DNA from: Chitinophagaceae bacterium
GTDB taxonomy: Bacteria; Bacteroidota; Bacteroidia; Chitinophagales; Chitinophagaceae
Direction: 5' to 3'
DNA length: 64,000 bases
Assembly (NCBI GenBank): GCA_047600605.1
Contig: JASGKK010000002.1
Location: forward strand, 1,075,509-1,139,508
Shown one piece after another: positions 2,214-31,574 of the stretch. The translations under genes were made by a program, and so were the position numbers. Numbering within the stretch: position 1 is the first letter of the stretch; the number at the start of each line of letters is the position of its first letter. The notes under the pieces are model-generated. The model saw only the letters and a list, made by a program, of their open reading frames with translations, searched no databases and was not told the origin of the DNA.

Positions 2214-3761
2214 ATGCCCAACCGTTCTACAGATGCTTTGTTTCAACTGGTAAAGTCGCTGGAAAAGAGTGAAAAACGCAATTTCAAGCTCTTTGTCAAG
2301 CGCAATTCAGCGTCGGAAGACCTCAAGATCATCCAGCTTTTTGATGCGCTGGATAAGATGGCCGATTATGATGAGGCTACCCTGCTCAAAAAGAATAAGG
2401 CTATCCGCAAACAACAGCTTTCCAATATGAAGGCCCATCTGTACAAACAGATACTGGCCAGCCTCCGTATTATCAAGGACGAGAATAATATTGATATCCA
2501 GCTGCATGAGCTGATGGATCATGCCCGTATTCTCTATAATAAAGGCCTCTACCTGCAGACCCTTAAAGCACTCAAGCAGTTTAAAGACCTGGCAAGGGAA
2601 AATAACCAGATCAGTTACCTGCAGCAGGCACTTTTCTTTGAAAAGAAAATAGAAGCCTTATACATTACCCGCAGCATGCAGCACCGGGCCGATGAGCTGT
2701 GCCAGGAATCCGATAATGTCAATAACGCACTAACGATAGTTAACCGTCTGTCCAATCTTTCGCTGCAGCTGTACAGTTGGTATATTCAGCATGGTCATGC
2801 CCGCAATGAGAAAGATATGCGCAGCATACAGGTGTTTTTTCAGATCAACCTGCCGTCCGAAGCCGGCCGTCTGACCGGTTTTTATGAGCGGCTCTACCTC
2901 TATCAGAGTTATTGCTGGTATGCATTTATCCGCCTTGATTTTCTTCAATACTATCGGTATTGTCAGAAATGGGTGGATCTTTTTGACACTAATCCCGATA
3001 TGCTGGCTGTAGAAACGGCCAGCTATATCAAAGCCATGCACAACCTGATGAGTGCTCACTTTGACCTGCTCAATTCAGATAAGCTTGCTGCTGATATCAA
3101 AAAGTTTGAACAGTTTGCACGTCACAAACTGGTAACCCAAAACGACAATAACCGCATTCTTACCTATCAGTACCTGTATACGGCACGTATCAACCTGTAT
3201 TTTTTGCAGGGCACTTTTGATAAAGGGCTCAAGATGGTTCCTTTTCTCGAAGACATGCTGAAGCAGTACGGTATTTACCTCGATACGCACCGGGTACTTG
3301 TATTTTACTATAAAATAGCCTGTCTCTATTTTGGCAGTGGTGATAATGAAAAGGCGATCGATTACCTCAACCGCATTATTAACCAGAAAGCCGATCTGCG
3401 TACCGACCTGCAGTGTTATGCCCGCCTGCTGCACCTGATCGCGCATTATGAACTCGGCAACTTTGATTTGCTCGAATACCTGATCAAATCGGTCTATCGC
3501 TATATGGCCAAGATGGAAAACCTGAGTAAGGTGGAAGAGGAGATGTTTGCTTTCCTTCGCCGTTCCTTTCATGTGGGTGCCCATGCCCTGACTCCTGAAT
3601 TTGAAAAACTACTGATAAAGCTTAAAAAGTATGAAGGCAATCCGCTCGAGACCCGCGCCTTCGCCTATCTTGATGTGATCTCCTGGCTCGAAAGCAAGAT
3701 CCATAAAGTGAATGTGCAGGATGTGATCAGGGAGAAATATGCCAGGCAGAAAAAGAAATAA
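2214..3761 (+). CDS. conserved hypothetical protein, all-helical/TPR-like
   Basis: 515-aa uninterrupted ORF with an ATG start and helical-repeat-like composition. The antisense ORFs inside it are short. I recognise no catalytic motif. Confidence 0.8.
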   Translation: MPNRSTDALFQLVKSLEKSEKRNFKLFVKRNSASEDLKIIQLFDALDKMADYDEATLLKKNKAIRKQQLSNMKAHLYKQILASLRIIKDENNIDIQLHELMDHARILYNKGLYLQTLKALKQFKDLARENNQISYLQQALFFEKKIEALYITRSMQHRADELCQESDNVNNALTIVNRLSNLSLQLYSWYIQHGHARNEKDMRSIQVFFQINLPSEAGRLTGFYERLYLYQSYCWYAFIRLDFLQYYRYCQKWVDLFDTNPDMLAVETASYIKAMHNLMSAHFDLLNSDKLAADIKKFEQFARHKLVTQNDNNRILTYQYLYTARINLYFLQGTFDKGLKMVPFLEDMLKQYGIYLDTHRVLVFYYKIACLYFGSGDNEKAIDYLNRIINQKADLRTDLQCYARLLHLIAHYELGNFDLLEYLIKSVYRYMAKMENLSKVEEEMFAFLRRSFHVGAHALTPEFEKLLIKLKKYEGNPLETRAFAYLDVISWLESKIHKVNVQDVIREKYARQKKK

Positions 3762-20200: not shown

Positions 20201-21262
20201 ATGCCCCGCTGCAAGCGGTGGTGAGCAATGAGACCGCTAACATTGATGTGTTCTTTGATAATCTGCAGAACTTGCCCCGAGCTTGCTTCGGGGTGACACA
20301 TATCCGGGGATCGATCCTGGAAGAGACGCAACTTGCCCCGCCAGCGGCGGGGTTACTATCCTTTTGGGTTGACGATGGCGGGGATATCGTCGAAAGCGTT
20401 GGCTTTTGGCTCTCCGGAGAATAGGTATAAGTTTAACGAAGGTACTGAATTAGAGCATAAAGAATTTAACAACGGAGCAGGCTTAGAATGGTACTCAACA
20501 GAATTTAGAAAATATGATCCGCAAATAGGACGCTTTCATCAGATCGATAATCTATCATTTTTGACCTATGATTATAGCCCATACACTTTTGCAAATAATA
20601 ACCCAATCTTGTTAAACGATCCCTTAGGCCTAACGGGAGATACCGCTTGGAAGGAACTTGCCCCTGTAGTTGTTACAGCAAAAATCCCCAAACCTTTAGA
20701 TACAGAGAATGGTCAAGTCTTGCCGCCACGATCCAGGTTTTGGGATTTTTGGGAAGGGAATCGTACATGGCAAGCGTACCCGGGAAGTTTCTATCGACAT
20801 GCAGTTGATCATCGAGGATACATAATTCCGAATGCACCATCTCCGCCAATCAAGTTTGAAATAAACATTCCGCCTGTAAGTTTTACAAGAATAAATCTAA
20901 GAGCCGTTTTTAATCTTAAGAACTGGATCAAAGGTCGATTTGCGATATACAGAGGAAAGAAATTCAATGGAGAATTGTACATTGGGAAAGCAACCACAAA
21001 AGATGGAAGCCTGTCTTTTAGATACTCAGCAGACGAAATCCTTGAGCTAGAGGCTACAGTGATAAAGGGATTAGACAATATACCAAACAATGCAATTGCT
21101 CTTGGAGTCGAGCAGCTAATAATTGATTTAAACGGTGGAATTCGTGGTGTCAATGTTGCTAATAAAATACCGGCTACGGTGAAAGAAATTTATATGATTG
21201 AGGCGAGATATTGGCTGAATCAAAACTTACCCAATTGGGAGACGCTATTAAAATTTCAATGA
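20201..21262 (+). pseudogene. orphan rhs cassette 1: 5'-truncated, frame-disrupted core plus an intact C-terminal toxin ORF (20333..21262)
   Basis: Homology to the main gene starts at the equivalent of 18523 (..[16 protein letters not shown]..). The core continues [28 protein letters not shown]...YDPQIGRFHQIDN...NNNPILLNDPLGL (20618-20632), followed by a unique 209-aa tail. There is no N-terminal RHS body or signal peptide. Confidence 0.8.
20204..20352 (+). repeat. three short GC-rich hairpin insertions in the rhs core of orphan 1
   Basis: H1 20204-20221 CCCCGCTGCAAGCGGTGG. H2 20269-20292 AACTTGCCCCGAGCTTGCTTCGGG (24 nt). H3 20331-20352 ACTTGCCCCGCCAGCGGCGGGG (22 nt). All three are absent from the intact gene (18520-18640) and from orphan 2. 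Confidence 0.85.
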
Positions 21263-21873
21263 TGAAAAAAAAACTCTTTTTTACAGGATCTGTGTTTCGG
21301 TTTTATATACCTGAAATTGGAAAGTATGGTTTTTGTAAGTTTTTTGATTTTAAACATTTAAGTGTATTTCATGGGCTACTTGCGCAGGTATTTGATAAGT
21401 TTACAGATACGGAAGACAACACAATAGATGATTTAAAAACTTGTGACTGGCTGTTCGGTCCAAGAAGCATATACAAATGGCCTGATTTAAAAAAAGATAC
21501 TGGTTGGAAATTATTGGGCATCTTGAATTCTGCTAAAGATGATTTTGTTCCGGATTTTAAAGAAGTTCAAGCCTTTCCCACGGTTGTAGAAGATGAGTCG
21601 AAAAAGGGGCCGTGGTATCCTATACATAATTTAACCCAAAGGGGTGAAAACTGTAATTATGGACAAGTAAAGCATTTAGAGCAAATAATCCTTACTCCCA
21701 CTATTGGGCTTATATTAAGAACTGGTATGGAATACTGCAGAATTAACGGTCTGAATGTTGGTGATTACTATGATTTAAGTAAGGCGGGCATTAAAAGTAC
21801 GTATTTGCAGATGATAAATGTTCCAATTTATAGCACCATTCCTTATGAAATACGAGGGAAATCAATAGTGTGA
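21259..21873 (+). CDS. putative immunity protein for orphan toxin 1
   Basis: The ATGATGA junction overlaps the toxin stop (21260-21262). 204 aa: MMKKKLFFTGSVFRFYIPEIGKYGFCKFFDF..., which is Imm26-like in style. The assignment rests on position. Confidence 0.65.
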   Translation: MMKKKLFFTGSVFRFYIPEIGKYGFCKFFDFKHLSVFHGLLAQVFDKFTDTEDNTIDDLKTCDWLFGPRSIYKWPDLKKDTGWKLLGILNSAKDDFVPDFKEVQAFPTVVEDESKKGPWYPIHNLTQRGENCNYGQVKHLEQIILTPTIGLILRTGMEYCRINGLNVGDYYDLSKAGIKSTYLQMINVPIYSTIPYEIRGKSIV

Positions 21874-21934: not shown

Positions 21935-22738
21935 ATGAAAATTGATATTTTTAGATTGACTTCGATTGATCATGCCGGTGTCGGTAATGAAGAAAACGGA
22001 TTAGTCGACCTGCTTTATTCCTTTTTACTTTGGAAGAATGGACTGGATTATTATAAATACATATTGATTAATCAAATTGGAAAGGATCAACAGATTAAAG
22101 AAGTAGTTCAAATTAAGAATGGCCGGGTTCATGTTAATTTAATTTACACCACCGAAAAGAATTTTGATCAGTTAGATGATTATAGGAAAAATACGATCAA
22201 GGTAGATATTATCCATGAAGGGCTTCAGAGATTATCCAAAGTTGATCCAAGGTTTTCTGATGAATTGCTGAATAAAATTAGAGGTCAAATAATTTCAAAG
22301 AATTTTTCTGTTGAATTGGAAAGTATTGGAAAGAATAGTCCTTTTGACAAAGAAGTTAGTGGCAAAATGGTGATTTTGCCCACCCCGAAATACTTTGACT
22401 ATTACCTTTTGATAAAGAATGGCAGCAAAGAAATATGTAGGCAGTTTATTTATAGAGGCGCCCCAACATCCGATTATTTCTACGCTTTTTTTTCAAGAGC
22501 TAAGTGGAAGAATAACATCACTTTTATTGTTGAAGGACGTGAAAAACAAATGCGATTGAAACTTGATGTTTCTAATTGTAAAGTTACTTTTGAGAATTTA
22601 ACTCATTACCCCAACCCACCCTTATGGGAAATAATGAAAGTAGGCATAAGTGAACAGGAAAGCAAAAGCGCCTACGAAAACTGGCTGCACTCCCTTCCTC
22701 CTGCGGTTGCCGCGATGATAAGGGATCACGAGAATTAG
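21935..22738 (+). CDS. uncharacterised 267-aa protein, tandem paralog 1 (candidate orphan immunity/accessory protein)
   Basis: MKIDIFRLTSIDHAGVGNEENGLVDLLYSFLLWKNGLDYYKY... with C-terminus ...PPLWEIMKVGISEQESKSAYENWLHSLPPAVAAMIRDHEN. Confidence 0.8.
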   Translation: MKIDIFRLTSIDHAGVGNEENGLVDLLYSFLLWKNGLDYYKYILINQIGKDQQIKEVVQIKNGRVHVNLIYTTEKNFDQLDDYRKNTIKVDIIHEGLQRLSKVDPRFSDELLNKIRGQIISKNFSVELESIGKNSPFDKEVSGKMVILPTPKYFDYYLLIKNGSKEICRQFIYRGAPTSDYFYAFFSRAKWKNNITFIVEGREKQMRLKLDVSNCKVTFENLTHYPNPPLWEIMKVGISEQESKSAYENWLHSLPPAVAAMIRDHEN

Positions 22739-22751
22739 TTTCAATATAGAT

Positions 22752-23555
22752 ATGAAGATTGAAATTTTTAGACTAATTTCTATAGACCCTAATGGTATAG
22801 GAAATCGAGGAAATGGGTTATTAAATATAATTTATTCCTACCTACTGTGGAAGAACGGGTTGGATTATTATAGGTTCATCAAGGTAAACCAAATTGGGCG
22901 GGAGCAACAGGTTAAGGAATTTGTAGAAATTGACAAAGGATACGTCCATATAAATTTAATATATCCCACAGATAAGGATTTCAATTTGCTTGATGATGAT
23001 AACAAAAACAAAATTCGTCTAGAAGTTGCTCATGCAGGTTTACTGCGATTGGCAGAGGTTGATTCTCGGTTTTCTATATCTAAACTGAATAAAATTCATG
23101 AAGAAGTAATAAAAAATAATTTCCAAATTGCATTGGAAAGTGATGGTAAGATAAATCAATTTGATAAGGGCGTTCTGGTAAAGCTGTTAATCTTACCAAG
23201 TATAACCTACTTCGACTATCACTTGATAATTCAAAGGGATGGTGCCGAAATTTGCCGACAATTTTTATACCGGGGAAAGCCCGCACCTGACATTGTTACC
23301 TATTTTTTTTCTAAGCCAAAGTGGAAAAATAAAAACGAATTGGTAATTGAAGGAGAAGAAAAGCAAATGCGTCTCCGATTAAATATATCCAATTGTAATT
23401 TGGAGTTTCAGAATTTGACTCAGTATCCAAGCCCACCCTTGTGGGAAATGATGAAAGTAGGCATAAGCGAACAGGAAAGTAAAAGTGCCTACGAAAACTG
23501 GCTGCACTCCCTTCCTCCTGCGGTTGCCGCGATGATAAGGGATCACGAGAATTAG
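22752..23555 (+). CDS. uncharacterised 267-aa protein, tandem paralog 2
   Basis: MKIEIFRLISIDPNGIGNRGNGLLNIIYSYLLWKNGLDYYRF... with the same C-terminal ~40 aa as paralog 1. Confidence 0.8.
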   Translation: MKIEIFRLISIDPNGIGNRGNGLLNIIYSYLLWKNGLDYYRFIKVNQIGREQQVKEFVEIDKGYVHINLIYPTDKDFNLLDDDNKNKIRLEVAHAGLLRLAEVDSRFSISKLNKIHEEVIKNNFQIALESDGKINQFDKGVLVKLLILPSITYFDYHLIIQRDGAEICRQFLYRGKPAPDIVTYFFSKPKWKNKNELVIEGEEKQMRLRLNISNCNLEFQNLTQYPSPPLWEMMKVGISEQESKSAYENWLHSLPPAVAAMIRDHEN

Positions 23556-23568
23556 TTTCAATATAGAT

Positions 23569-24372
23569 ATGAAGATCGAAATTTTCAGATTAATTTCAAT
23601 TGATCCCGATGGTATCGGCAATCAAGGAAACGGCTTGTTAGATATTCTTTATTCTTATTTATTATGGAAGAATGGTTTAGACTTTTATAAATTCATTAGG
23701 ATTAATCAAATTGGGCATGAGCAACAGATAAAAGAATTCGTAGAAATTGAAAAAGGGAAGGTACATGTTAGTCTAATCCATCCTACGAACAAAGAATTCG
23801 ATTTACTTGATGACTACAACAAGAATAAGATTCGATTGGAGGTAATACATGCCGGACTACTTAGGTTGGCAGAGGTTGATCCCAGGTTTTCACCAAATGT
23901 GCTTGAGAAAATTCGTGAGAATATCCTCAATAGTAATTTCAATGTCGCGCTGGAAGGGGAATGGAAAGTAAACCAATTCGACAGAACTGTTCAGTTTAGC
24001 TTTTCAGTTATACCGTACACAGCATTTTTTGATTATTATATAACAGTTCAGAGGGACGGAATTGAAATTTGTAAGCAGTTTTTATATCGAGGGAAGCCTA
24101 ACCCTAGTATTGCGTATTACTTTTTTTCTAGGCCAAAATGGAAAAATAAAAGCGAGTTGGTGATTGAAGGGGAAGAAAAGCAAATGCGTCTCCGTTTAGA
24201 TATATCCAATTGTACTTTAGAGTTTCAAAATTTAACCCAGTATCCAAATCCACCGTTGTGGGAAATGATGAAAGTGGGCATAAGCGAACAGGAAAACAAA
24301 AGTGCCTACGAAAACTGGCTTCACTCTCTTCCACCGGCAGTCGCCGCGGTAATAAGAGATCACGAAAATTAG
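23569..24372 (+). CDS. uncharacterised 267-aa protein, tandem paralog 3
   Basis: MKIEIFRLISIDPDGIGNQGNGLLDILYSYLLWKNGLDFYKF... with C-terminus ...SAYENWLHSLPPAVAAVIRDHEN. Confidence 0.8.
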   Translation: MKIEIFRLISIDPDGIGNQGNGLLDILYSYLLWKNGLDFYKFIRINQIGHEQQIKEFVEIEKGKVHVSLIHPTNKEFDLLDDYNKNKIRLEVIHAGLLRLAEVDPRFSPNVLEKIRENILNSNFNVALEGEWKVNQFDRTVQFSFSVIPYTAFFDYYITVQRDGIEICKQFLYRGKPNPSIAYYFFSRPKWKNKSELVIEGEEKQMRLRLDISNCTLEFQNLTQYPNPPLWEMMKVGISEQENKSAYENWLHSLPPAVAAVIRDHEN

Positions 24373-25866: not shown

Positions 25867-27636
25867 CCGCAACGATACGCTGGAGTTTATCAGTCAAGAA
25901 GAAGTACGGATCCGTAAAAAAGGTACTACTGCGCTGGTATACGATTACATGCTCAAAGATCACCTGGGCAATGTGCGAATGCTGCTGACCACCGAGCGGG
26001 ATACATCGTTTTATCCCGTAGCCAGCCTCGAAACAGCCAGCCTGGCTACCGAACGCAATTATTATAGTGGCGTGGATACCGGCCGGGTTAATAAAAGTAC
26101 TGTGGCGGGTTATCCCGGCGATACCTATACCACCCCCAACGATTTTATCCAGAAGCTGAATGGCGCTGGTCCGAAGATCGGTACCAATATGGTGCTGAAG
26201 GTGATGGCAGGTGATAAAGTAAACCTCTTTGCCAAAAGCTGGTACAAAAAAACGGGATTACACCCGGCACGCCTAATAATCCGCTGACCAATATTCTCAA
26301 TGTGCTGGAGCCGGCCATCGGGGGTATTACAGGCACGCACGGCGGAGCTACGCTGACGGAACTACAGACTACCAGTGTGCTGGATAACCAGGTGACCAGT
26401 TTTCTCAACAGCCAGAGTGGCTATACCACCAGCAAACCCAAGGCTTTTGTGAACTGGGTATTGTTTGATGAACAGTTTAAATATGTGGCTGCCAGCAGTG
26501 GTTTTGAGCAGGTGGGAGCCGATAACACATTGACCACTCATACCCCGACTGCTATTAACATTTCAAAAGGCGGTTATTTGTATATTTATGTGAGCAATGA
26601 GACACCCAATGTAGACGTGTTCTTTGACAACCTGCAGGTATCTCATATTCGCGGGCCGATCCTCGAAGAAACCCATTATTATCCTTTTGGCTTAACGATG
26701 GCGGGGATATCCTCAAAGGCGTTGGCGTTTGGAGAGCCGGGGAATAATAGGAAATGGAATGTTGGAAGTGAATTAGCAAGTAAAGAGTTTAGTGATGGTA
26801 GTGGATTGGAGCTTTACGAAACGTTTTATAGGAGTATTGACCCGCAGATAGGAAGATTCTGGCAAATAGACCCAGAATTTGAAGCACAAGAGAACTCTTC
26901 TCCATACGAAAGCATGGGAAATAATCCGATAAGTAATATGGATCCGCTGGGTGATTTTAAAACTAAATTTGGTGCAAAATGGCATAGATTTTGGCATGGT
27001 GGCGGGGCTGTTCAGAAAAATGAATATGATGAATGGTATGTAAGCAAAAGCAAAGTTGAAGATGATGGGAACGGCGGTACTGTTGTGAAATCGTGGAAGT
27101 ATTACGGTAAGGGAAGGGACAAATACTTTACAGTAAGAGAAGCTCTTTTAAAAGACTATGCTATCATGGAGGATATACAACAGAAGGGGGATGCCTCTAT
27201 GTACCAAATGTACGATTCGCCAGAAGATGCAGGTAAAGCAGCTTTGAGTCTTGGGGTAGGAGTTGTTCTTCCAAATCCAGTTTTAAAGACGGGTACAAAT
27301 GCTGCGAATGCTACTCAAGTCGTTGCAAATGGAACTACAAAGGTACTTTCAAGAGCAGAGCGATTACAATTGTTCAAAGAGAGTATATTAAATGCACCTA
27401 TGCCTAAAAACCCTAAAGAGGCATTAAAGCTAATAAATAAAATTTTGGATAAAATAGAGGATGCTCATGCAGGTGCTAATGATAGAATGTATGGGATACT
27501 TGACAAAAAGTATGTGACTACCCGTTCAGATGGTGGACTTACTGCTTTAACTAAAGGGCATAGAATAGAGATATCGACTAATGGTAGTTTTAGTATTTAT
27601 GAGAGGGCTACTGGAAACCTATTTTTAACTAAATAG
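25867..27636 (+). pseudogene. orphan rhs cassette 2: 5'-truncated RHS body+core, frameshifted in an A7 tract, with a unique C-terminal toxin (open part 26302..27636)
   Basis: Homology begins at the equivalent of main-gene position 17801; 57 of 60 nt match between 25947-26006 and 17881-17940. The frame breaks at A7 (26246-26252). The core ends ...NNPISNMDPLGD (26941-26955), followed by a 226-aa unique tail. Confidence 0.8.
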
Positions 27637-28519: not shown

Positions 28520-28616
28520 CTAAAATGCCGATCAGGGTTCGGAACGTCGAAGCGAGCGTGGCAACAGGCGATGCTAGTAGTAATGCAGTTGGGTTCATAA
28601 GACTTCTTTTATTAAC

Positions 28617-29533
28617 CCCAACGATTTTATCCAGAAGCTGAATGGCGGCGGTCCGAAGATCGGTACCAATATGGTGCTGAAAGTAATGGCAGGTGACAAG
28701 GTAAACCTGTTTGCCAAAAGCTGGTACAAGAAAAATGGGGTCACACCTGGCACACCTACCAATCCGCTTACCAGTATCCTGAATGTGCTGGAACCGGCCA
28801 TCGGAGGTATTACAGCTTTACATGGCGGAGCTACCTTAACAGAGCTACAGACTACCAGTGTACTCGACAACCAGGTGACCAGTTTCCTGAACAGCCAGAG
28901 TGGCTATACCACCAGCAAACCCAAGGCTTTTGTGAATTGGATACTGTTCGACGAACAGTTTAAATACGTAGCCGCCAGCAGTGGTTTTGAGCAGGTTGGG
29001 GCCGATAACACATTGACCACCCATACCCCGGCCGCTATTAATATTTCAAAAGGAGGTTATTTGTATATTTATGCGTGCCCCGCTGCCAGCGGTGGTGAGC
29101 AATGAGACTGCCAATGTAGACGTGTTCTTTGATAACCTGCAGAGCTTGCCCGAACTTGCTTCAGGGTGACGTATATCCGTGGACGGGTCCTGGAGGAGAC
29201 GGAACTTGCCCCGCCAGCGGCGGGGTTATTATCCTTTTGGGGTGACGATGGCGGGAATAAGCAGTAGGGCATTGACACTCGGTTCTCAAAAGAATAGGTA
29301 TAGATACAATGGCAAGGAGTAAGAAAGGCAGGAGTTTGCAAATGGTTCAGGGTTGGAATGGCTGGATTATGGAGCGAGAGTGTACGATGCTCAAATTGGA
29401 AGATGGAACAGCATTGATATTTTGTCTGAAAGTATGACCCGCTTTTCCCCATATATTTTTTGCTTTTGACAATCCTATAAATTATATAGATCCCGATGGT
29501 ATGAAGCCAGTATGGAATGGAACTGATATGTAG
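28617..29533 (+). pseudogene. orphan rhs cassette 3: heavily degraded core with hairpin insertions, internal stops and almost no toxin tail
   Basis: Homology begins at the equivalent of main-gene ~18068 ([32 protein letters not shown]...). There is a stop after ...YRYNGKE and several frameshifts. The core end reads ..[13 protein letters not shown], followed only by KPVWNGTDM*. Confidence 0.8.
29074..29225 (+). repeat. three hairpin insertions in the rhs core of orphan 3, at the same positions as in orphan 1
   Basis: H1 29074-29095 CGTGCCCCGCTGCCAGCGGTGG (22 nt). H2 29143-29165 AGCTTGCCCGAACTTGCTTCAGG (23 nt). H3 ~29202-29225 GAACTTGCCCCGCCAGCGGCGGGG. Confidence 0.85.
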
Positions 29534-30071: not shown

Positions 30072-31252
30072 ACTTGATCTGACAGTTGAGGATTAATTTT
30101 TTAATTTTCAAAAGGGATGCCGATTAAATTAGTTAGGCTGCTGAACTTACCTGGTTCAGCAGTTTTTGTTTAGCTAAGGTAATAGATTCAGTAAAGGTAA
30201 GCATGGGGGTTTTGCCAAAGCAGTATCTGCCACTGTGTGGTCTTTCGTTGTTGTAGAACTCCAGCCACTGATCCAGGTCGTGTTGGAGCGTTTCCAGATT
30301 CTGGTATAATTTTTTACGGAATGTGATGGCATAGAACTCCTCCTGCATCGTTCGATGCAGGCGTTCGCAGATACCGTTGCTTTGGGGATGACGAACTTTT
30401 GTCTTGCTATGATCGACTCCTTCGATCTGTAGGTACAGAGCGTACTCATGGCTTTCAGGTCTTCCATTAAACTCGGTACCGCGGTCGGTGAGTATCCGCA
30501 GCAGGGGTATTTGTTGCTGTTCAAAGAAGGGAAGAACCTTGTCATTGAGTATATCTGCCGCTGTAATAGCATGCCTGCTGGTATACAGTTTTGCAAAAGC
30601 TACACGGCTGTAAGTATCAATGAAAGTCTGCTGATAAATACGGCCAACCCCCTTGATTGTTCCAACGTAGTAGGTATCCTGTGAACCCAGGTAACCTGGA
30701 TGCTCCGTTTCTATTTCGCCATGGGCCTCCAGTTTCTCCCTTTTACGCTCCAGGGCTATCAACTGAGCTTCTGTAAGGATCAGCCCAGCCTGAGCAACAC
30801 GGACTTCCAGGGCCTTTAACCGCTTTTCGAAGACTTCCAGGTCATGGCGCTGCCACACACAACGGACCCCTGCAGCGGAGATAAAAATGCCCTGTTTGCG
30901 TAATTCATTGCTGATCCGGAACTGACCATAGGCCGGATAGTCAAAGGCCATCTTCACAACAGCTTCTTCCACAGCCGGATTGACCCGGTTCTTCGGTACA
31001 GGTTTGCGGCGGCTGATCTCCCGCAGCGCCTCTTCTCCACCGGTATCATATAACTGTTTGATGCGGTAAAAACTGTCCCGGCTGGTGCCCATTAACTTAC
31101 AGGCACGGGTGACGTTGTTCAATTGTTCAGCCAGGTTGAGCAGGCCAATGCGGGATTTGATTAACTTAGTTTCAGAGTTCATGATCTGACTTTTGGGGGT
31201 TATTAATTTAGTTTGTCGTTACTCTAAATTAACCCCAACTGTCAGATCAAGT
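30072..31252 (-). mobile_element. IS481-family insertion sequence
   Basis: 17-bp perfect terminal inverted repeat ACTTGATCTGACAGTTG (30072-30088 versus the reverse complement of 31236-31252), extending imperfectly to ~26 bp. A single transposase ORF lies inside. I saw no clear target-site duplication. Confidence 0.85.
30133..31182 (-). CDS. IS481-family transposase (HTH + DDE/rve integrase core)
   Basis: 349 aa. ...[23 protein letters not shown]... HTH, then DTYYVG...FIDTYSRV...[10 protein letters not shown]...[19 protein letters not shown]. Confidence 0.9.
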
Positions 31253-31506
31253 CTTAACTTCTACAAATAATGCCAGTGATATTAAGTTTTCACCATTACA
31301 TTTAAACAGGTAGACTCGTTCCTTTTCGTCATTGCAGGTATTTAAGGTAATAATTAGTAGTAGCCCTGACAGTTGATGGTTTTTATTTTACTGCTCAAAA
31401 TGGTTAGGGTTAAACAGCCGGGCTACTATTGAAAAGCTTCCCCTGGTTAAATCTAATAATTGTTTACTGCTTTCAATCGCTACGATTTAAGGGGAAACTT
31501 TTTAGA

Positions 31507-31545
31507 AATGAAACACCCAACGTAGATATATTCTTTGACAACGTT
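31507..31545 (+). pseudogene. 39-nt rhs core relic
   Basis: AATGAAACACCCAACGTAGATATATTCTTTGACAACGTT encodes NETPNVDIFFDNV. This matches the core segment [13 protein letters not shown] of the main gene (from 18531). Confidence 0.7.
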
Positions 31546-31574
31546 ACTATATAATTAAGCTACATATTGTCGGC

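Follow-up and report, generated by a model that had tools for sequence, protein, structure and literature searches.

Questions addressed at this locus

Rhs orphan cassettes are thought of as a reservoir for toxin-tip switching via homologous recombination. The DNA analyzed here, a stretch of 64,000 nucleotides from the contig JASGKK010000002.1 of a Chitinophagaceae bacterium (hereafter, the window), contains a full-length rhs gene that includes YD repeats and a TIGR03696 core; partial-core/toxin/immunity modules come after it. In one of these modules, orphan 1, the core homology is interrupted by three short GC-rich hairpins, which we call H1, H2, and H3. What are these hairpins, and how did they come to lie in the part of the cassette that is homologous to the main gene? 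We found that they are derived insertions in the untranslated 5′ homology arm of orphan cassettes, outside the coding sequence. With moderate confidence, we interpret them as miniature palindromes with a CNTG head that resemble repetitive extragenic palindromic (REP) sequences, have spread among homologous rhs cores, and persist as secondary insertions in silent orphan arms.

Three hairpin inserts occupy identical sites in two rhs orphans

The core copies of the window were aligned with MAFFT, comparing orphan 1 with the main core (18490-18700), orphan 2 (26555-26765), and orphan 3. The alignment bore out a first-pass annotation of this DNA, made from the sequence by eye, in that orphan 1 contains three extra segments relative to the main rhs gene and orphan 2, both of which lack H1 to H3. 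For H1, the annotation had given positions 20204 to 20221, which correctly delimit the stem part, but the full insert is 22 nt long and begins at 20200. The boundaries and lengths proposed for H2 and H3 held, as did the in-frame reading of H2, the splitting of a His codon and shift of frame by H3, and the 5′ word that H2 and H3 have in common. All three segments fold as hairpins, with calculated single-stranded DNA folding energies of −5.5, −5.9, and −8.9 kcal/mol and z-scores of −1.9, −2.2, and −3.1 for H1, H2, and H3, respectively. Independent Logan assemblies of ERR12982543-5 match the H1 region base for base, and this region is therefore not an assembly artefact.

Orphan 3 and its hairpins were not listed in the first-pass annotation. 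This orphan carries all three orphan 1 hairpins at identical sites (Table 1), and all six hairpin copies of the window sit in orphans 1 and 3. A search for CCCCG-N3-12-CGGGG returned 3 matches in the window, compared with 0.47 expected, and all three were in rhs orphans. In addition, scanning for short GC-rich hairpins revealed nothing related in the rest of the window, including several kilobases of intergenic DNA.

H1 to H3 occupy approximately 110 nt directly upstream of the core domain. In the main gene, the TIGR03696 domain starts at YYPFG, one codon after the H3 insertion site (site 3), and H3 accordingly stops one codon short of the domain. The mechanically called open reading frame (ORF) of orphan 1 begins at a TTG within H3, and an intact 309-codon frame lies downstream of H3. 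Among 111 core copies long enough for nucleotide alignment, 12 have inserts and 99 do not. Since the inserts also break codons and frames, they are secondary, as had been proposed, and not ancestral sequence that was lost from the main gene.

Related loci carry a family of CNTG-headed hairpins at recurrent sites

Relatives were collected by three routes. A search with the protein translated through the inserts yielded five short metagenome ORFs, whose contigs were fetched; a genome scan with the H3 pattern added L098, a Terrimonas ferruginea metagenome-assembled genome (MAG) with the same core context; and a protein-guided metagenome scan supplied 79 further rhs loci. The carrier loci are the window, L001 to L006, L098 (a further carrier outside the set of 111 copies), L161, L168, and L191. 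Among the related metagenome and MAG loci, eight or more insertion sites fall within approximately 350 nt of core. Five were found in the first alignment, two more came from L098 and from L168 and L191, and the eighth lies farther upstream. The seven numbered sites in Table 1 are those inside a 204-nt segment.

Every true insertion of at least 13 nt in the aligned segment is a CNTG-headed hairpin. The inserts are 13 to 30 nt long, mostly 20 to 24 nt, and those of 16 to 30 nt, together with one 13-nt insert that borrows host bases, have single-stranded DNA folding energies of −3.6 to −8.9 kcal/mol. The layout of the family is an unpaired C-N-T-G head (CTTG, CCTG, CGTG, or CATG), present in every insert type, followed by a (Y)CCCG...CGGG(R)-type stem. 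Several loops are of the very stable C-GAA-G (GCGAAGC) type, a mini-hairpin motif also included in the upstream insert of L004, and GNRA or UUCG loops occur as well. When filled and empty sites were compared, no insert was associated with a target-site duplication, and the 5′ flanks of the insertion sites do not have a common tetranucleotide. The L191 contig holds both a filled and an empty site, with flanks that are 88% identical and a clean 30-nt insert.

Certain hairpin bodies are present at two sites each. The body TC(N)CGCCGAAGGCGGA is found at sites 1 and 4 in L002 and twice in tandem at site 1 in L098, and the body TCCCGACRCTTCGGGA occupies site 4 of two loci, L005 and L006, and site 5 of L001. 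Carrier copies have from one to five or more hairpins at varying positions; the L161 orphan has H2 alone, in frame. The toxin ORFs downstream of H3 are intact in most carriers.

To describe the distribution of the family, we used a regular expression, which gave 26 matches in 786 kb of rhs loci, compared with approximately 2 in shuffled sequences. Nineteen of the 26 matches were in rhs cores, and the remainder were a handful of intergenic copies near rhs arrays. The density outside the cores is about 1 match per 125 kb. With all window copies located in orphans, the hairpins are thus not ubiquitous REP-like intergenic repeats, in keeping with the first-pass annotation. The main genes of the window and of L001 are free of hairpins, and all insertion sites lie in core patches of above-average conservation (percentiles 0.69 to 0.91). 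Of approximately 120 core matches that were fetched without hairpin-based queries, about 100 of which were long enough for alignment, only 3 (L161, L168, and L191) are carriers. The hairpins are therefore strongly concentrated in rhs cores, and they are neither ubiquitous nor a regular feature of orphans.

Flanking sequences indicate repeated gain or movement of the hairpin alone

We then compared the flanks of the hairpins between copies. Over the interval from site 1 to site 3, 8 of 85 positions distinguish orphan 1 from the hairpin-free main gene and 15 to 22 of 85 distinguish it from other carriers, and the hairpin-bearing copy L191a is nearest to the hairpin-free L191b. Across 468 nt of upstream sequence, orphan 3 is nearer to the other copies of the window (89%) than to the carrier L002 (75%). 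Transfer of H1, H2, and H3 as a block by ordinary gene conversion was considered and rejected, because in orphan 1 the stretches between hairpins resemble the hairpin-free main gene more than they do any carrier.

Carriers from different genomes differ mainly at third codon positions. L002 and L006 show 3 differences at codon positions 1 and 2 and 15 at position 3, and orphan 1 and L004 show 5 and 14, respectively. Functional main genes show a similar third-position pattern, whereas the differences between the two L001 orphans, A and B, follow a neutral pattern. Because H1 and H3 wreck the reading frame while the flanks have diverged in the manner of coding sequence, most of this divergence must have arisen in a hairpin-free coding state. 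The H3 copies deviate from their consensus at 2 of 171 positions in the head and stem, compared with 56 of 468 in the flanks and 7 of 27 in the loop. Together, the flank data argue against a single ancient insertion that was vertically inherited and indicate that the hairpins were either gained repeatedly at the same nucleotide or moved as the hairpin alone.

A possible route of spread between rhs cores

How might a hairpin move without its flanks? For REP-like palindromes carried by orphan arms, the likeliest route of transfer would be recombination of one rhs core with a homologous one. Repair of the heteroduplex so formed would correct point mismatches and leave a stable hairpin loop in place, so that only the hairpin would be transferred or retained. 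Escape of the loop from repair would lead each site to hold mostly its own hairpin type, would place sites in conserved patches and restrict them to a multi-copy gene family, and would exert pressure for a stable stem; expressed main genes would lack hairpins because the frameshift would be lethal to their function. New sites would be founded rarely, by a REP-like single-strand process that requires the hairpin and the tetranucleotide and that could rest on template switching or on a HUH-type enzyme supplied in trans.

The hairpins would then probably be passengers, selfish or neutral, whose survival is limited to silent orphans, and any effect on the host is probably incidental. As a by-product, the orphan arm would be kept out of frame, such that a crossover would have to fall downstream of H3 to yield a functional gene. 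The longest exact match to the main gene is 28 nt in orphan 1 versus 83 nt in the hairpin-free orphan 2, and it is plausible, as the first-pass annotation had proposed, that the hairpins form a barrier to recombination. A more specific version, which we regard as unlikely, is that the hairpins, CNTG-headed and approximately 20 nt long, constitute a hitherto undescribed gene-conversion parasite or the product of a targeted hairpin-insertion system, specific to repeated rhs cores, that disables homology arms and gates tip switching. In this version, patches consisting of the hairpin alone would spread because the loop evades heteroduplex repair. In the literature, we did not find a description of hairpin or palindromic insertions in rhs orphans or of repeated gain at identical positions.

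Several observations weigh against spread between cores as outlined here. Escape from heteroduplex repair is a step that we purely infer. Gene conversion alone leaves the common CNTG head unexplained, and this head implies either a common origin or a sequence-specific step at the founding of a new site. The strong conservation of the H3 stem could reflect a selected function instead. Neither the surroundings of the locus nor 1.63 Mb of fetched loci showed a Y1/HUH transposase, which leaves the postulated enzyme without a candidate: Pfam detected no Y1_Tnp domain among 30 window proteins, and a tblastn search of the 1.63 Mb for HUH or RAYT proteins gave no match, although this search was a weak one. 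Seven of the 10 related carrier loci were found by hairpin-containing queries, and with so few carriers from unbiased sampling, the enrichment estimate rests on small numbers. Finally, the copy counts cover the window and the fetched loci, so a dispersed REP family is possible.

Alternative explanations

A dispersed family of this kind would be an ordinary, genome-wide one of REP type, mobilized by a HUH enzyme, RAYT or another, whose gene lies elsewhere. The preference for rhs would then be apparent only, with insertions tolerated in dead orphan arms and purged elsewhere, and with duplication of orphans multiplying the copies. The size of the inserts, their GC-rich stem-loop, the unpaired head, the lack of target duplication, and the occurrence of tandem units all match REP anatomy (PMC3733652). 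A few intergenic copies were also detected outside rhs cores (L006 2089-2108, L171 4653-4672, L134, and L199), and a Saprospiraceae MAG contains intergenic arrays of related 21-nt units (see below). However, there are zero copies in the several kilobases of intergenic DNA of the window, the density outside cores in the 786 kb is low, the head is neither GTAG nor CGTC, and no RAYT gene was seen in the window or, within the limits of the tblastn queries, in the fetched loci. Moreover, random transposition combined with tolerance does not predict insertion at identical positions or hairpin types that are mostly site specific. A genome-wide REP family is an unlikely source of the inserts.

We consider it quite unlikely that the hairpins are selected functional elements, such as transcriptional insulators or attenuators, stabilizers of RNA 3′ ends positioned past the upstream immunity gene, or deliberate breakers of frame or homology that silence spare cassettes. 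A role of this kind would fit the nearly invariant stem and head of H3 with its variable loop, the frequent use of very stable C-GAA-G, GCGAAGC, GNRA, or UUCG loops, the position of H1 as the first strong hairpin past the immunity gene, and the integrity of the toxin ORFs after H3 in most carriers. The first-pass annotation had likewise suggested silencers or insulators and had described H3 as terminator-like. A terminator scan of positions 19500 to 21500 called 0 terminator-like sites, and H3 is followed by TTACTATCC, with no U-run directly after the stem, which does not support that description. Similarly, Rfam 15 gave no covariance-model match at E ≤ 1 in positions 19800 to 20700. Most orphans of related loci have zero hairpins, so the hairpins are not a required part of the cassette and a general silencing or insulating role is not sustained; in addition, hairpin number and position vary among copies, and in L161 an orphan contains nothing but the in-frame H2.

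Two explanations at the level of translation were tried and rejected. The insert lengths sum to a multiple of three in L002 (63 nt) and in L001 A and B (81 nt) but not in the window copies, L004-6, or L098, and since the inter-hairpin segment would stay out of frame, these sums were treated as chance. Translational bypassing or +1 frameshifting would call for matching take-off and landing codons, of which there are none, and in orphan 1 there is nothing to translate upstream of H1.

It is improbable that the hairpins are recombination sites or recombinase footprints, whether attC-like or of HUH type, that serve the capture, excision, or movement of orphan cassettes. In orphan 1, the core homology starts within approximately 2 nt of the 5′ end of H1 (20196-20204), with unrelated intergenic sequence upstream, and a tetranucleotide next to a hairpin without target duplication is the anatomy of a HUH substrate (PMC13181058). 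However, the drop in identity near site 1 is equal in the hairpin-free orphan 2 and in orphan 3, and in L001 it lies approximately 100 nt upstream of the hairpin; H1 was on these grounds rejected as a cassette recombination junction. Other carrier orphans begin well upstream of site 1, and no recombinase gene is linked to the hairpins except that of an ordinary DDE (rve) insertion sequence (IS) at 30133-31182. The edge of homology at H1 may be due to chance, or the hairpin end may have served as a deletion or joining point.

Finally, it is highly improbable that each site received one ancient insertion that was inherited vertically with the orphan cassette, without mobility or recurrent gain: a given hairpin type does occur mostly at one site across several genomes, and L001 orphans A and B look like neutral duplicates of a copy already bearing hairpins, but carriers do not cluster by flanking sequence, their divergence between genomes is of the coding type despite the frame loss caused by H1 and H3, site 1 holds unrelated bodies in different genomes, the bodies at site 4 differ behind their AGCCTG head, and some bodies are common to two sites.

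If hairpins insert again and again at identical nucleotides in the homology arm, they would act as a natural brake on, or marker of, toxin-tip switching, and an element of approximately 20 nt without a gene of its own would be persisting and spreading within a family of repeated genes. Transfer of the hairpin alone, a mechanism that we infer, would, if true, offer a testable, enzyme-free route of spread for miniature palindromes and would touch on a long-standing problem, the multiplication of REP-like sequences. Should the hairpins prove to be ordinary, dispersed REPs instead, the result would reduce to a REP family of Bacteroidota whose head type, CNTG, is new.

Similar hairpins in other phyla

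A genome scan for CTTGCCCCGCCNNNGGYGGGG gave matches in many phyla among the matches listed. In a control scan of viral contigs, the bare hairpin CCCCGCCNNNGGCGGGG was common, mostly as terminators, and the CTTG head was present in only about 1%, which argues that most cross-phylum matches are generic hairpins. A cross-phylum family was rejected for this reason, and the matches inside ORFs in L012, L119, and L120 are not insertions. Only L098 (at the same site), L054, L048, and L058 were kept as relevant.

In L054, a Bacteroidales UBA4073 MAG, positions 694-714 belong to an in-frame 24-nt copy in an rhs core domain, SPDN[GACPANGG]VQMPDF, which equals H3 of L002 and L098 over 21 nt, loop included. 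In L048, a Victivallales MAG, an in-frame 21-nt copy lies in a YD repeat at 969-989, GNLTN[ACPAIGG]DGTRVYTW. Both rhs genes are otherwise open. Two rhs matches among the 120 matches listed are above the expectation from the rhs share of a genome, with the reservation that the numbers are small, and these in-frame copies are a hint that the link of the hairpins with rhs may extend beyond one family. L058 (Saprospiraceae MAG JABARE010000027.1) contains, at 2500-3640, an intergenic block of tandem repeats of approximately 350 nt with head-to-tail arrays of 21-nt hairpin units, CCTGTCCCGCCAACGGCGGGG or CTTGCCCCGCCAACGGCGGGG, whose head and stem are of the same type as those of the rhs inserts.

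Three other observations arose from the scan. A conserved motif of approximately 100 nt around CTTGCCCCGCCTCCGGCGGGGCG (...ctccgcctcgctag...gtgt-hairpin-...cttgaagg) occurs in Acidobacteriota and Actinomycetota (L028, L045, L046, L063, L097, L116, L121, L123, and others), with several repeats in one Acidobacteriota MAG. It had no Rfam match at the gathering threshold in the four loci scanned (L028, L045, L043, and L063) and looks like an unrelated structured RNA or a mobile-element-associated repeat. In L009, a Saccharibacteria MAG, a hairpin of the H3 pattern lies at 1091-1111 within a 23S rRNA gene (Rfam LSU 318-1360) and may be an rRNA expansion or insertion. In intergenic DNA of L025 (5478-5540), a MAG of candidate division TA06, GCTTGTCCTGAACTTGTTTCAGGGA begins 8 nt after an H3-type hairpin and resembles H2, including the unusual ACTTGYT loop, with complementary changes in the stem.

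Setting of the rhs locus

The features of the locus and the insertion sites are collected in Table 1. The core of orphan 3 comprises approximately 470 nt with 89% identity to the main gene. Downstream of orphan 1, positions 21935 to 24372 hold three tandem paralogous ORFs of 267 aa each, the second and third copies having 83% and 68% DNA identity to the first. The first of these paralogues has no Pfam match, and they may be immunity-type paralogues. The transposase gene (rve, HTH) of the DDE IS, on the minus strand, closes the orphan array. Just past it, a 48-nt relic of the core segment at 31501-31548 (plus strand) encodes ...NETPNVDIFFDN... and may be the remnant of a further orphan.

Table 1. 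Features of the rhs locus in the window and hairpin insertion sites in the core of related loci (^, point of insertion)
Feature	Position or junction	Strand	Description	Basis
H1	20200..20221	+	Site 1; 22-nt insert CATGCCCCGCTGCAAGCGGTGG	MAFFT alignment, folding
H2	20269..20292	+	Site 2; 24-nt insert AACTTGCCCCGAGCTTGCTTCGGG, in frame as NLPRACFG	Alignment, translation, folding
H3	20331..20352	+	Site 3; 22-nt insert ACTTGCCCCGCCAGCGGCGGGG, splits His codon, shifts frame	Alignment, translation, folding
H1′ (orphan 3)	29074..29095	+	CGTGCCCCGCTGCCAGCGGTGG, clean insert between TTTATG and TGAGC	Alignment
H2′ (orphan 3)	29143..29165	+	AGCTTGCCCGAACTTGCTTCAGG, degenerate, 23 nt, weakened stem	Alignment, folding
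H3′ (orphan 3)	29204..29225	+	Same as H3 at 22/22 positions	Alignment
Main rhs toxin gene	15159..19553	+	1464 aa, without hairpin inserts	ORF list; Pfam DUF6443, RHS_repeat; NCBIfam TIGR03696, YD repeat
Reference segment of main core	18506..18710	+	Hairpin-free; holds every empty insertion site	Alignments
TIGR03696 domain of main gene	18612..18887	+	Rhs-associated core domain, residues 1152-1243	NCBIfam
Immunity gene of main toxin	19544..20008	+	SUKH/SMI1-KNR4	Pfam; identical protein on independent Logan contigs
Orphan 1 module	20333..21262	+	Complete TIGR03696 domain and intact toxin tip	ORF list, NCBIfam
Orphan 2	25867..27636	+	Core remnant of ~900 nt and toxin tip, no hairpin inserts	Alignment, domain scan
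Orphan 3	28605..29520	+	Core remnant and decayed tip with several stop codons	Alignments
Upstream site	~130 nt before site 1		L004 110-136, CTTGCCCCGAGAGCGAAGCGCTTCGGGA; L005 39-65, CTTGTCCCGAGAGCGAATCGATTCGGGA; in the same orphan cores	
Site 1	TTTATG^TGAGC		22-nt H1 type; unrelated 20-nt CATGTCGCGCCGAAGGCGGA in L002; two tandem 20-nt units in L098	
Site 2	CTGCAG^GTGAC		H2 type; sole insert and in frame in L161	
Site 3	ACGCA^TTAYTAY		H3 in nine sequenced copies	
Site 4	GAY^(G)TGTTC		Three distinct hairpin bodies, common AGCCTG head	
Site 4b	GTG^TTC		30-nt CCTGCCCGTCCGTAGCGAARCGCAGGCGGG in L168 and L191	
Site 5	TTTG^		13 nt completing TCCCGACGCTTCGGGA in L001	
Site 6	GTTC^TTTGAT		CCTGCCTGCCGGCAGG in L098	

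Comparison with known systems

The escape of a hairpin from repair has a counterpart in yeast, where Nag, White and Petes in 1989 reportedly observed that palindromic loops in heteroduplex DNA escape mismatch repair. Such behavior would explain transfer or retention of the insert only between diverged homologous copies, although the yeast case differs in being a laboratory phenomenon with engineered palindromes. We know of no report that loop-repair escape spreads sequences naturally within gene families of bacteria. The small dispersed repeats (SDRs) of cyanobacteria, a subject of Elhai et al. in 2008 (Genome Res 18:1484), are said to be approximately 21 to 27 nt long and mobile-looking, with some forming hairpins, and to be inserted in conserved sequences, genes, and repeats. 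SDRs and rhs hairpins are alike in being very small repeats set into otherwise conserved sequence. In contrast to the rhs hairpins, SDRs belong to another phylum, have other sequences, and are distributed genome-wide without being tied to one repeated gene family.

Rickettsia palindromic elements (RPEs), yeast mitochondrial GC clusters, and "byp" elements are small palindromes in the coding sequences of expressed genes. Those elements are in frame or are bypassed, whereas H1 and H3, at 22 nt each, shift the frame, H2 is in frame, and the carriers in these genomes are silent orphans; in-frame hairpin copies are found elsewhere, in L161 and in the rhs genes of L048 and L054. RPE-4 and RPE-6 have been classed as REPs (PMC3733652). 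The rhs hairpins do not have the features of miniature inverted-repeat transposable elements, being clean insertions without target-site duplication and single hairpins as opposed to the inverted repeats of a parent IS.

HUH enzymes act on a tetranucleotide next to a subterminal palindrome and leave no target duplication, and the IS91 family has the target CTTG/GTTC adjoining oriIS, subterminal palindromes, and a T as the invariable second target base (PMC13181058). The rhs hairpins are like the ends of IS91 and IS200/IS605 elements in that an unpaired tetranucleotide stands directly beside a short palindrome and no target duplication is made. The HUH-like, hairpin-specific enzyme suggested in the first-pass annotation would fit this anatomy. 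The rhs hairpins differ in that each is a single hairpin without a second end, and by the searches used no transposase was found in the window or the 1.63 Mb. Unlike in IS91, any of the four bases (T, C, G, or A) can stand second in the head, and unlike for HUH transposons, the 5′ flanks of the rhs insertion sites are not united by a tetranucleotide.

Single REP units measure 20 to 40 bp, and some of them lie within ORFs (Di Nocera et al. 2013, PMC3733652). Together with the SDRs, they show that the first-pass annotation overstated its case in describing the established analogues as much longer. REPs have a conserved unpaired terminal tetranucleotide, GTAG or CGTC (PMC3733652), in place of the CNTG head. 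The rhs hairpins also differ from REPs in lacking a high-copy dispersed distribution in the sequence scanned (the window and the 786 kb), in being concentrated in one gene family, and in occupying identical nucleotides in diverged copies; in contrast to REPIN/RAYT systems (PMC3116915), no RAYT was found with them in the window or, by the weak queries used, in the 1.63 Mb. As both the head type and the dispersed copy number fall outside the REP definition, we set the CNTG hairpins as REP-like and not as REP members. The likeness lies in a GC-rich stem-loop that is palindromic and folds, a conserved unpaired terminal tetranucleotide, stems that vary through complementary changes, and variable loops. 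It extends to units that are single, tandem, or clustered and without target duplication, and to some in-ORF copies that encode extra residues; short intragenic REP-like elements are an already described class.

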